DNA of 52,200 nucleotides. It comes from Candidatus Yonathbacteria bacterium RIFCSPLOWO2_01_FULL_47_33b (lineage in GTDB: Bacteria; Patescibacteriota; Minisyncoccia; Phycocordibacterales; UBA1550). Below the pieces are notes generated by a model. It worked only from the letters and a program-made list of their open reading frames with translations. It had not been told where the DNA came from and made no database searches. Position numbers and translations under genes: made by a program. Where the stretch lies: the NCBI GenBank assembly GCA_001823575.1, contig MHUW01000019.1, forward strand, positions 1-52,200. The letters are read 5' to 3'. Numbering within the stretch: the first letter of the stretch is position 1; each line of letters begins with the position of its first letter. Shown here piece after piece: positions 14,888 through 17,860 of the stretch.

Positions 14888-15700
14888 CTATATCTTTCTC
14901 TTTTTCGAAGAAAAACCGAATATAGTTTTATATGTATTCTTCCCAAAAAGAATCGGGTGAAAGGATTTTTTAGCAAAAATTTTTTCCTTGGTCTTTTGGT
15001 TGTATCCGACCACACTCCCCTTTTCAAGAAGGGCAAAATTTTTGATACTCGACATTACCTTAAACCCCTCTGGCTTTATCACCAGAGCATCGACTTCATA
15101 AAAATCAATGGTATTTTTATTTTGTTTTTGAGAAGAAGGTTTTATCATTTTATAATATTCAAGCAGGCGTGTTACTCCTCGAATGGTATCATGGTACGTT
15201 TTTGTGCTTTTATCTTTCCCATACTCAAAACCAACTCCTAACTTTGCAGAGGACATCAGTGCATTCGACTTTGTTGCCTTCATATAAATAACCCTCTTGG
15301 GTGAAATTGCCTTCAATAAGGGTTTCATTGCGGGGGTATAATTTGTGATTATGAGCGAAGAAGCAACCCCTGACTCGGTAGAATGAATATCTACAACAAC
15401 ATCAAATGCATCAATAAAAGGCTTCATCCTGTACGCAAGTTCTTCCTCCCGGCTTCCATTTTTCCTACCGGGAAAAACTCTGTTGAGATCATCATCAAGG
15501 AAGCGCTTTTTTGCTTTAACTGCTTGTTCATTTGCGACATTAATGACAAAAGTTCCACACAGCGGTTGTGTCTTGCTAAAATACTTAGCGACCTTAAGCC
15601 CGACTCGCTCATTACCGTGTGTACAAACATTCAATAAAATCTTTGGCGACGGTGAGCAGTCTATTTTTTGAATATTCTTTTTTGAATATTTATGATTCAT
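14888..15700 (-). CDS. Succinylglutamate desuccinylase/aspartoacylase family (M14-like Zn hydrolase)
   Basis: HGNE, DLNRVFPG, DIHS, EYG motifs. Confidence 0.85.
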   Translation of the reverse strand: MNHKYSKKNIQKIDCSPSPKILLNVCTHGNERVGLKVAKYFSKTQPLCGTFVINVANEQAVKAKKRFLDDDLNRVFPGRKNGSREEELAYRMKPFIDAFDVVVDIHSTESGVASSLIITNYTPAMKPLLKAISPKRVIYMKATKSNALMSSAKLGVGFEYGKDKSTKTYHDTIRGVTRLLEYYKMIKPSSQKQNKNTIDFYEVDALVIKPEGFKVMSSIKNFALLEKGSVVGYNQKTKEKIFAKKSFHPILFGKNTYKTIFGFSSKKRKI

Positions 15701-16438: not shown

Positions 16439-16496
16439 GACATACTCCTTTCGTAATATTAAAAGAACAATGACACAGAAACCCTGAGAAGCTTTA

Positions 16497-16763
16497 ACAA
16501 AAAACTCCTCGTCTCCATACACAAAAAGCTTGTGTAAAGGGACGAAGAGTCTTGTCTACGTGTTACCACCCTTTTTTGGAAGCAAAGCTTCCCTTATTGA
16601 CTCAGACACCTTGCGGCCGACATCAATTATCCCATGATTACGGAGGAATCCGGGTCTCCACTAATGCAGAGACCACCTTGCTCATTTTGGCGAGCGATAT
16701 AGGCCCAACCCCCTAGTTTTCCTAGGGGACCTATATCAAAGGATTTACTACTATCGAAGAACT
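16497..16763 (-). ncRNA. T-box riboswitch leader (transcriptional), atypical stem I
   Basis: AAAAAAGGGTGGTAACACG (16577-16559) pairing with CGTCCC; overlapping terminator ending in U-tract; stem II, IIA/B pseudoknot with CCGTAATC, stem III. Confidence 0.85.
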
Positions 16764-16769
16764 AAATAA

Positions 16770-16797
16770 AGAGTAGCACAGCAAAAAATTCTGTCAA
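16770..16797 (-). promoter_or_regulatory. Promoter of T-box leader
   Basis: TTGACA-16-TACTCT with extended TG. Confidence 0.65.
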
Positions 16798-16801
16798 GCA
16801 A

Positions 16802-16837
16802 AATAAAAAAGAGACCCTCAAAATCAAGGGTCTCTTA
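16802..16837 (-). terminator. Terminator after trpS
   Basis: AAGAGACCCT..AGGGTCTCTT hairpin plus T-tract on minus strand. Confidence 0.75.
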
Positions 16838-16867: not shown

Positions 16868-17860
16868 TCACTTCATCGAGCTTCGCACAAGGTCAAGTGT
16901 TGATTCTGCATTCGCTAAAGCCACGGAAGCCCCTTCTTTGAGAATACTATCTATGTATGAAGGGTCCTTCACAATTTCAGCTCGACGCGTCTGGAACTGA
17001 CGTAAAAAATCAACTACAATTGTAGCTAATAAATCCTTGAACACCCCCATTACTTGCTTACCCTCTAAATGTTCACTGATAATTGAGTCTATGTTCAAAT
17101 GAACTGCCGGATCACCACACAACTCTTTCGCAAGAGTTATATGGCTCTGTAGGCTATCAGTCATTACACCCTCAGTCGCAGTTTCTGCTGACTTTATCTT
17201 TTTTGCAACCTTAGCAAGGTCATCAGTAAGAAAAATGGCCCCACCTGGAACTGATTTGCTCATTTTCCCAGTCCCTTTCAATGAAAGGATGCGCAACGAC
17301 TTAACTTGCTGTACTGCAGGAATAGGAAATACATCCCCATATCTAGCGTTAAAATCACGAGCAAGTCGACGAACAACCTCCATGTGTGCAAGTTGATCTT
17401 CTCCAACGGGGACACTTTTAGCACGCTGAAGTAAAATATCAGCCGCCATCATTACTGGATAAAGAAACAAAAGAGCATTTGCTGTTTCAGGGTGTTCAGT
17501 ATTCTTTAATTTATCCTTGAGTGTCGGCACTCGCAATAATTCCGAAACCGAAGTGTGCCGCGCCAACAGCATTGTCATATAACTCACTTGATAAGCGATT
17601 GATGATTGTATGTAGATATTTGTCTTATTGGGATCTAACCCCAAGGCCAAATAGTCGGCAACGACCTCGCGGCAAAATTTATTTGCCACCGCAGGTTCAT
17701 TGTCCGTCAAAGAATGCATATCTGCCACAAACACCAGCGATTTGGCGCCTTGTTTCTGGAGCTCCACAAGAGGCTTCACCGCACCAATGTAGTTTGCTAT
17801 TGTAAGATCCCCCGTCGGACGGATACCTGTGTATAATTCAACTTTGTATTCTGCTTTCAT
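16868..17860 (-). CDS. trpS: Tryptophanyl-tRNA synthetase
   Basis: TGIRPTG.LTIANY (HIGH-equivalent), YPVMMAADIL, VPVGEDQ, KMSKS; own TTGACA-17-TAGTTT promoter and SD. Confidence 0.92.
   Translation of the reverse strand: MKAEYKVELYTGIRPTGDLTIANYIGAVKPLVELQKQGAKSLVFVADMHSLTDNEPAVANKFCREVVADYLALGLDPNKTNIYIQSSIAYQVSYMTMLLARHTSVSELLRVPTLKDKLKNTEHPETANALLFLYPVMMAADILLQRAKSVPVGEDQLAHMEVVRRLARDFNARYGDVFPIPAVQQVKSLRILSLKGTGKMSKSVPGGAIFLTDDLAKVAKKIKSAETATEGVMTDSLQSHITLAKELCGDPAVHLNIDSIISEHLEGKQVMGVFKDLLATIVVDFLRQFQTRRAEIVKDPSYIDSILKEGASVALANAESTLDLVRSSMK

Follow-up and report, generated by a model that had tools for sequence, protein, structure and literature searches.

A probable tRNA-Trp-responsive T-box leader with a three-way-junction stem I ahead of a GNAT-fold gene in Candidatus Yonathbacteria

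In the genome of Candidatus Yonathbacteria bacterium RIFCSPLOWO2_01_FULL_47_33b we have identified a T-box leader which, together with its promoter and intrinsic terminator, spans positions 16797-16499 on the minus strand of a stretch of 52,200 nucleotides, called here the window (contig 19 of a 719-kb genome, 92% complete), and which precedes a gene, P0001, whose product has a predicted GNAT fold. Very probably, this leader is a working transcription-attenuation T-box specific for tRNA-Trp, built as a lineage-specific structural variant, and it would most likely turn the GNAT-fold gene on under tryptophan shortage. What we observe is; 1- the elements of the leader, 2- their conservation and covariation at related loci, 3- the match between codon and gene contexts and 4- the match between T-box bulge and tRNA discriminator base. 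From these we infer tRNA binding, readthrough and the role of the gene.

The Rfam T-box model RF00230, searched with an E-value threshold, aligns to the leader over model positions 1-219 with 43.2 bits and an E-value of 3.4e-8. This is an end-to-end match in the model check proposed by the first-pass annotation of this DNA, though it lies under the gathering score of the family. In this alignment, 86 stem I model positions are skipped against 56 nucleotides (nt) in the leader. The leader folds with z = -5.6, and none of 100 shuffled sequences folds as well. It is also the only credible T-box that the RF00230 search gave in the whole genome: a second match (C16:40144-40213, 13.7 bits, E 0.35) covers the antiterminator part only, falls in apparent coding sequence and was taken as chance. 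Other sub-threshold Rfam matches nearby, a rimP leader on the trpS terminator (E 0.4) and several microRNA models on the T-box terminator, were set aside as hairpin look-alikes. The promoter, stem II, IIA/B pseudoknot, downstream box, stem III, antiterminator and mutually exclusive terminator that the first-pass annotation had read on the minus strand, beyond trpS and its terminator, are all found in their places (Table 1). The -35 element recurs as TTGAC[AT] no more than 70 nt upstream in 19 of 20 related loci, as read by eye; a generic promoter scan of the window did not list the leader promoter. Terminator and antiterminator exclude each other as the CGUCCC strand is common to both, and trpS itself is outside the control of the leader.

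Table 1. Leader elements and adjoining features on the minus strand, with positions in the window
Feature	Position	Strand	Remarks
trpS (tryptophan--tRNA ligase)	16868..17860	-	TIGR00233 E 1.3e-70, PF00579; upstream neighbour
trpS intrinsic terminator	16809..16836	-	terminator scan; 12-bp stem, then T run
Leader promoter	16770..16797	-	-35 TTGACA 16797-16792, 16-nt spacer, extended -10 TGCTACTCT 16778-16770; read from sequence
Stem I, three-way junction	16676..16742	-	all four helices covary across 24 loci
Stem I basal helix	16742-16740 / 16678-16676	-	covaries
Stem I lower helix	16737-16730 / 16703-16696	-	covaries
Stem I upper 7-bp hairpin	16728-16710	-	covaries
Specifier loop GUUGGG	16704..16709	-	proposed codon UGG 16707-16705, then G16704; UGGG invariant 24/24
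Stem I junction hairpin	16695-16680	-	folds in 24/24 members, from unrelated sequences
Stem II GGUCUC-UGCAUUAGUG-GAGACC	16653..16674	-	conserved UGC...AGUG interior; compensatory change in 5/7 pairs
Stem IIA hairpin CGG-ATTCCT-CCG	16652-16641	-	invariant
F-box-like CCGUAAUC (DNA CCGTAATC)	16643-16636	-	CCGU(A/U)A invariant
Pseudoknot IIB	loop UCCU 16647-16644 with GGGA 16633-16630	-	2/4 pairs covary
Extra hairpin between IIA/B and stem III	16596..16627	-	AUUGA...UCAAU round internal loop, plus GCC-GCAA-GGU
Stem III GGGAAGC-UUU-GCUUCC	16578..16593	-	sequence varies among relatives
T-box sequence AAGGGUGGUAACACG (DNA AAGGGTGGTAACACG)	16573-16559	-	UGGU bulge 16568-16565
Antiterminator 3' strand CGUCCC (DNA CGTCCC)	16544-16539	-	antiterminator folds at -6.8 kcal/mol
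Intrinsic terminator	16499..16552	-	-24.9 kcal/mol, then U6 (T6); 5' arm contains antiterminator 3' strand
GTTCTTT motif	16462..16468	-	between terminator and ribosome-binding site; same place in 18/23 related loci with sequence there
P0001, regulated gene, 216 aa	15788..16438	-	GNAT fold (predicted); ribosome-binding site AAAGGAG 16451-16445
AstE/AspA-type zinc amidohydrolase	14888..15700	-	PF24827 E 5.1e-17, 62.5 bits against cut-off 25

Stem I is non-canonical, a three-way junction without AG bulge or distal T-loops, as had been noticed at first pass, and its junction helices covary in the 24 loci described below. The 5' domain consists of a GATATAGG/CCTATATC helix bearing the 7-bp hairpin and of a GCTC-GCCAAAAT-GAGC hairpin, which together make the junction. 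Above the specifier, 20 of the 24 members have a 5-7 bp hairpin with a small loop, and the other four a longer hairpin with no conserved motif; a plain hairpin at this place precludes the interdigitated T-loop platform known from canonical stem I. A check for a K-turn (GA motif) at the base of stem I found UGA after the basal helix in the window (CCUUUGAU); this UGA is not conserved in the 24 members, and the 3' side is taken up by a three-way junction. Further downstream, the extra hairpin is an insertion relative to the RF00230 consensus (30 nt after IIA/B), and all 8 of its modelled pairs covary.

Leaders of this type were collected at 24 distinct loci, mostly from one Patescibacteria order, and the relatives that carry names are Candidatus Yonathbacteria. 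The set includes loci reached through the downstream protein, and entries with identical scores were dropped as duplicates (L066 and L070, equal to G004; L067, L071 and L072, equal to G008; L073, equal to L068). The covariation analysis suggested by the first-pass annotation gave compensatory changes on both sides in 28 of 35 pairs over these loci, and 97.1% of the cells form standard pairs; none of 500 shuffles reaches the observed values, and slid partners pair at 35-53%. The changes extend to the IIB pseudoknot, where C-G to U-A and C-G to G-C exchanges are seen. One further pair of the pseudoknot (columns 171-221) was dropped, as 16 of the 24 members do not form it, so that the pseudoknot counts 4 bp. 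Since the covariation recurs at 24 loci, the three-way-junction stem I and the extra hairpin are features of a family and not signs of decay.

This bears directly on the possibility, raised at first pass, that the leader is a decayed relic which no longer switches, its original gene having been replaced. A relic would suit the Rfam score under threshold and the truncated stem I, as well as the unusual downstream gene, whose family is patchy in the genus (3 of 28 other genomes) and survives in one genome only as a 52-residue remnant without a T-box. Yet every functional element is intact, the compensatory changes are spread across 14 genera, the codon and the bulge are invariant, and terminators are kept in 23 of the 24 loci. 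Moreover, all 7 distinct loci of the P0001 family, down to 44% protein identity, retain the leader; counted by source, these are 4 of 4 genome loci with a full-length copy and, duplicates included, 7 of 7 metagenome loci. Covariation and this strict linkage to one gene family refute the relic, and we regard it as extremely improbable.

The first-pass annotation could assign no specifier codon. In all 24 members, however, the one-sided specifier loop reads R-Y-UGG-G with an invariant UGGG, and we propose UGG (tryptophan), followed by a purine, as the specifier. The genes that follow these leaders point the same way. Members of the family directly precede trpB at two loci (L026 and L029; TIGR00263, 475 and 524 bits, above cut-off), trpE at L040 and trpD-like genes at L033 and, as the second gene, at L025, while in 4 of 20 loci trpS is no more than 1.5 kb away and a tRNA-Trp gene adjoins the T-box in 3 genomes.

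The discriminator base gives a second test of specificity. A tRNA-Trp(CCA) is present in the genome studied here (G000), at C17:41312-41383, and the tRNA-Trp discriminator is G73 in 17 of 17 genes from 15 genomes, this one included. The T-box bulge reads UGGC in 15 members and UGGU in 9, its variable base being never A or G. The earlier suggestion that UGGU best fits a tRNA with discriminator A is thus not borne out: an A73 tRNA is ruled out, since its discriminator would find no partner in UGGC, and the UGGU of the window becomes a G:U wobble with G73. In this the leader resembles known Trp T-boxes, where a U opposite G73 is common (46%, according to the TBDB paper, PMC7778990).

The tRNA-Trp(CCA) genes that lie beside a Trp T-box are those at L059 (G055:C2, about 110 nt upstream), L052 (G131:C16) and L057 (G148:C18). 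All carry an encoded CCA end and G73, they are second copies in two of the three genomes, and their acceptor stems differ from that of the common tRNA-Trp of the order.

With regard to the read-out, 23 of the 24 loci have a U tract preceded by a terminator that folds at -25.8 kcal/mol or stronger, and the 24th is cut off by a contig end. A strict test that demands CGYCC fully paired in the terminator 5' arm is passed by 17 of 24; L026, L029, L036, L040, L068, L074 and the cut locus L032 fail it, and the folds of the first four place the CGYCC strand largely within that arm. Sequestration of the Shine-Dalgarno sequence was also considered, and the window has instead a terminator hairpin and U tract 60 nt upstream of the ribosome-binding site. 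Because terminators and U tracts are so general, this leader type is a transcriptional T-box, one without an elbow-binding motif.

The mechanism that we propose would run as follows. Transcription would start at about 16765 and give a leader of about 270 nt. The CCA anticodon of tRNA-Trp is predicted to pair with the UGG codon on the 3' side of the stem I internal loop, and stem II and the IIA/B pseudoknot may clamp the codon-anticodon helix, by analogy with stem-I-truncated T-boxes. If the tRNA is uncharged, its 3' end, G73-C-C-A, would pair with the UGGU bulge, the G:U wobble included, and would stabilise the weak antiterminator, allowing RNA polymerase to read into the GNAT-fold gene. If the tRNA is charged or absent, the terminator of -25 kcal/mol would form and transcription would end.

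Several points speak against a functional tRNA-Trp T-box and have to be weighed. The score of 43.2 bits stays below the Rfam gathering score of 93, for which reason a default-threshold Rfam scan of the 52-kb window is silent, and none of 61 related genomes reaches this cut-off; the gathering score is, however, a threshold for automatic annotation and not a mechanistic feature. The pair counts come from an alignment that had been fitted to the model and so favours the structure; from these 24 aligned members, however, RNAalifold independently recovers the same helices together with a covarying basal helix and the junction hairpin. The window copy carries the wobble form UGGU, and P0001 is without known link to tryptophan. 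Stem I lacks the elbow-binding distal motif, which transcriptional T-boxes generally require according to a review (PMC7583486); the same review describes the loss of this motif as typical of translational, actinobacterial T-boxes, in which stem II becomes essential. Since a separate group of aspS and thrS T-boxes in the same order likewise combines an ultrashort stem I with terminators, the combination of terminator and truncated stem I looks like a property of the lineage. Finally, a pair may form between the last G of UGGG and the U opposite to it (U:G in 23 of 24 members by RNAalifold), which leaves a 5-nt loop where the usual frame rule would read YUG, a leucine codon.

A rival proposal is that the T-box senses tRNA-Leu, through YUG one base 5' of UGG, or else tRNA-Gly, through GGG, and not tRNA-Trp. 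UGG is preceded by U in 22 members and by C in 2; UUG and CUG are both leucine codons, and GGG is invariant too. Nonetheless, tRNA-Leu(CAA) and tRNA-Gly(CCC) of this genome carry discriminator A, with which the UGGC of 15 members cannot pair. The gene contexts are trpB, trpE, trpD-like genes, trpS and tRNA-Trp, with no leucine or glycine genes, and at L042 trpB is preceded by a related form that has an ultrashort stem and the loop UGAUUGGGA. We consider a leucine or glycine specificity very improbable and retain tryptophan as the amino acid that would be sensed.

Compared with known systems, the leader shares with canonical class I T-boxes (RF00230; Bacillus tyrS, glyQS and trp-related leaders); 1- a specifier codon in a stem I loop, 2- a stem II with AGUG-type interior, the IIA/B pseudoknot, the CCGU(A/U)A box and stem III, and 3- the T-box sequence with a UGGN bulge, along with mutually exclusive antiterminator and terminator. 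Unlike class I, it has a plain 7-bp hairpin in place of the AG bulge and the distal interdigitated T-loop platform, a three-way junction that bears an extra hairpin closes its stem I, its specifier loop is one-sided, the 5' side having 0-1 nt, and a conserved extra hairpin follows IIA/B. It also differs from the class I leaders of Firmicutes in its host phylum, Patescibacteria, and in its score of 43 bits against a cut-off of 93. With the class II translational T-boxes (ileS of Actinobacteria, Mycobacterium tuberculosis) it has in common a truncated stem I without elbow motif and the retention of a full stem II and IIA/B, which are essential when stem I is truncated, as stated in PMC7583486. 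In contrast to class II, where the ribosome-binding site is sequestered, the read-out here is through an intrinsic terminator and U tract (23 of 24). The codon occupies an internal loop, with an inserted hairpin above it, and not a terminal loop (sister forms in the same taxonomic class have it terminal), the amino acid would be tryptophan and not isoleucine, and a three-way junction and an extra hairpin are present. Judged from its sequence by mechanistic criteria, the leader is a member of the T-box family that appears to stand outside both class I (no platform) and class II (terminator).

Perhaps these leaders make up an undescribed T-box class confined to Patescibacteria (Parcubacteria-type), which terminates without an elbow platform and relies instead on a three-way-junction stem I and an accessory hairpin, and whose regulon is a new tryptophan-starvation response in which a GNAT-type or ATP-dependent amide-forming enzyme and an AstE/AspA amidohydrolase act on a Trp-containing or Trp-sparing amide. 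We put this forward tentatively, as a serious possibility. A full-text search, with most subscription journals outside its range, found no paper joining T-boxes with candidate phyla radiation (CPR) or Patescibacteria lineages; such leaders may have been described earlier or catalogued in TBDB.

The leader would place T-box regulation in ultra-small Patescibacteria, where standard Rfam thresholds miss all such leaders (0 of 61 genomes over the cut-off). It would also be a natural counter-example to the view, found in PMC7583486, that transcriptional T-boxes need the stem I elbow-binding motif, and fast co-transcriptional tRNA capture without this motif becomes testable on a compact RNA. Moreover, the codon offers a functional handle on genes that cannot otherwise be annotated, linking to tryptophan limitation a GNAT-fold family without Pfam match, two further families, amidoligase-like genes and an AstE/AspA hydrolase, all in organisms that depend on hosts for amino acids.

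As to its distribution, two groups can be told apart among the weak RF00230 matches, which come from 16 of the 61 related genomes (13 of 33 genera): the aspS/thrS ultrashort-stem type and the window type. Of 151 genomes sampled from the order, 15 (14 of 131 genera) contain the window type according to a covariance model of its core, which covers 150 positions and runs from stem I up to the extra hairpin. Across the class, in a sample of 151 genomes with G000 and a few others from this order among them, the model gave only 2 weak matches in the 150 besides G000.

The aspS/thrS type is a second kind of T-box in the same order, placed before aspS at L007, L009, L012, L016, L017, L019, L020, L021 and L022 (L009 being a locus left out of the family search) and before thrS at L015. 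Its stem I is ultrashort and presents the codon in its terminal loop (GAC in L007, for instance), terminators and U tracts are apparent, and the scores are again below the Rfam cut-off. In other orders of the class a shorter Trp T-box was found at L041 (G293:C18) and L042 (G264:C31), where stem I is a single hairpin with the loop UGAUUGGGA; L042 precedes trpB (TIGR00263, 635 bits). Comparison of the two tryptophan forms suggests either that the upper hairpin of the window type was inserted into a loop of the UGAUUGGGA type, or that the short form arose by deletion of the hairpin.

For the regulated gene, P0001, neither Pfam nor NCBIfam gave a match at E up to 1. Its AlphaFold2 model (predicted local distance difference test, pLDDT, 92.5) has the GNAT alpha/beta fold. 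VIA-align relates it to NatD (Z 13.1, root-mean-square deviation 3.6 over 156 aligned residues), RimI (Z 12.6) and many other GNATs (Z 11-13), and Foldseek gave E of about 1e-6, with 113 matches at E up to 0.001. This predicted fold agrees with the early guess of a GNAT-like, non-synthetase gene. The modelled protein has this fold in common with NatD/Naa40, RimI and AAC(2')-Ia. At the place where GNATs bind coenzyme A (CoA) pyrophosphate it has an R-S-x-G-x-Y loop, reading R-S-x-G-L-Y with an invariant Y where the GNAT motif is Q/R-x-x-G-x-G/A. Unlike those GNATs, it escapes the Pfam and NCBIfam profiles, and its family has an invariant AMTQNPRVY motif of its own and a C-terminal extension of about 60 residues. 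The family is small, since one search gave 30 proteins and the profile 154 representative clusters at E up to 0.001, and, where names exist, it is restricted to Patescibacteria (Patescibacteria group bacterium, Candidatus Yonathbacteria). By hhalign it is linked to its positional counterparts at other loci, with 88% probability to a PF00583-matching protein and 64% to another. The 52-residue remnant mentioned above (L006/L069, G014:C2:16691-16846) shares 87% identity with the C-terminus of the family. It belongs to an open frame of 89 codons that has no T-box core in its vicinity, and is probably what is left of a decayed P0001-family copy.

The next gene encodes an AstE/AspA-type amidohydrolase, which is not an aspartoacylase equivalog since it scores 70.7 against the NF002601 cut-off of 180 (E 1.1e-19). 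A hairpin and T run (about 15761-15724) separate it from P0001, and the pairing of the two genes is read from the gene neighbourhood. The same succession, a first gene after the T-box and then an AstE/AspA-type amidohydrolase, is found in 8 of 20 loci (the window, L010, L011, L028, L030, L031, L035 and L037), the first gene being either GNAT-like or a GCS2/Amidoligase_2-like ATP-dependent carboxylate-amine ligase. These different first genes look like functional replacements of one another, and uncharged tRNA-Trp may induce a pair of enzymes, one forming and one cleaving an amide, that act on a putative Trp-related compound. In the 92%-complete assembly of this genome no profile match was found for trpB, chorismate-binding (trpE-type), Glycos_transf_3 (trpD-type) or Trp_syntA (trpA), and all four profiles match 14 of 14 control genomes; by its gene content, the host seems to be a tryptophan auxotroph, unable to make tryptophan. 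P0001 is probably an N-acyl- or aminoacyl-type transferase which, with the amidohydrolase, helps such an auxotroph through tryptophan shortage.

A working switch could also serve defence, if the GNAT-fold protein were to acylate a tryptophan antimetabolite or an inhibitor of tryptophanyl-tRNA synthetase and were not a supply enzyme. Both kinds of compound also leave tRNA-Trp uncharged, the genome shows no tryptophan pathway to boost, and the nearest folds (Z 11-13) include, besides N-alpha-acetyltransferases, resistance acetyltransferases such as AAC(2'), the tabtoxin resistance protein and the phosphinothricin and glyphosate acetyltransferases. T-box-controlled resistant synthetase copies exist in other bacteria. 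Yet other genomes have GCS2/Amidoligase_2-like genes at this place, also followed by the AstE/AspA amidohydrolase, which argues for the making and breaking of an amide metabolite rather than for drug inactivation, and elsewhere the same leader type controls plain trp biosynthesis genes. Resistance is the weaker alternative to the amide-metabolite role, and we think it quite unlikely.

It may also be asked whether attenuation by tRNA-Trp is only one of two layers, with the GTTCTTT motif before the start codon adding a translational or protein-mediated step. Its consensus is GTTC(C/T)T(T), roughly A-W-A-GTTCTTT-W-A (loci L010-L040, L068, L074 and L075), and its recurrence at the same place in 18 of 23 loci compares with a chance estimate of about 0.04 per locus. 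Pairing between the motif and the ribosome-binding site (UUCUUU with AAAGGA) would be possible in the window. Several loci, however, have the motif without a recognisable complementary Shine-Dalgarno sequence, and nothing ties it to any factor. As a general signal of 5' untranslated regions it was rejected: 16 of 238 occurrences lie before genes against 8 of 238 for a permuted word, with no genome-wide enrichment. Such a second layer strikes us as unlikely. A second GTTCTTT-type copy stands near the 5' end of the leader (16757-16763, minus strand) and is otherwise seen in the closest relatives only.

At a few loci, genes of another kind follow the T-box. L014:1794-2555 and L027:539-1330 encode proteins of 253 and 263 residues, similar by eye and both without a Pfam match; the protein of L014 has no NCBIfam match either, and an alpha/beta hydrolase gene comes next after it. 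At L034, the first gene after the T-box encodes a PEP-synthase/PPDK_N-like protein.

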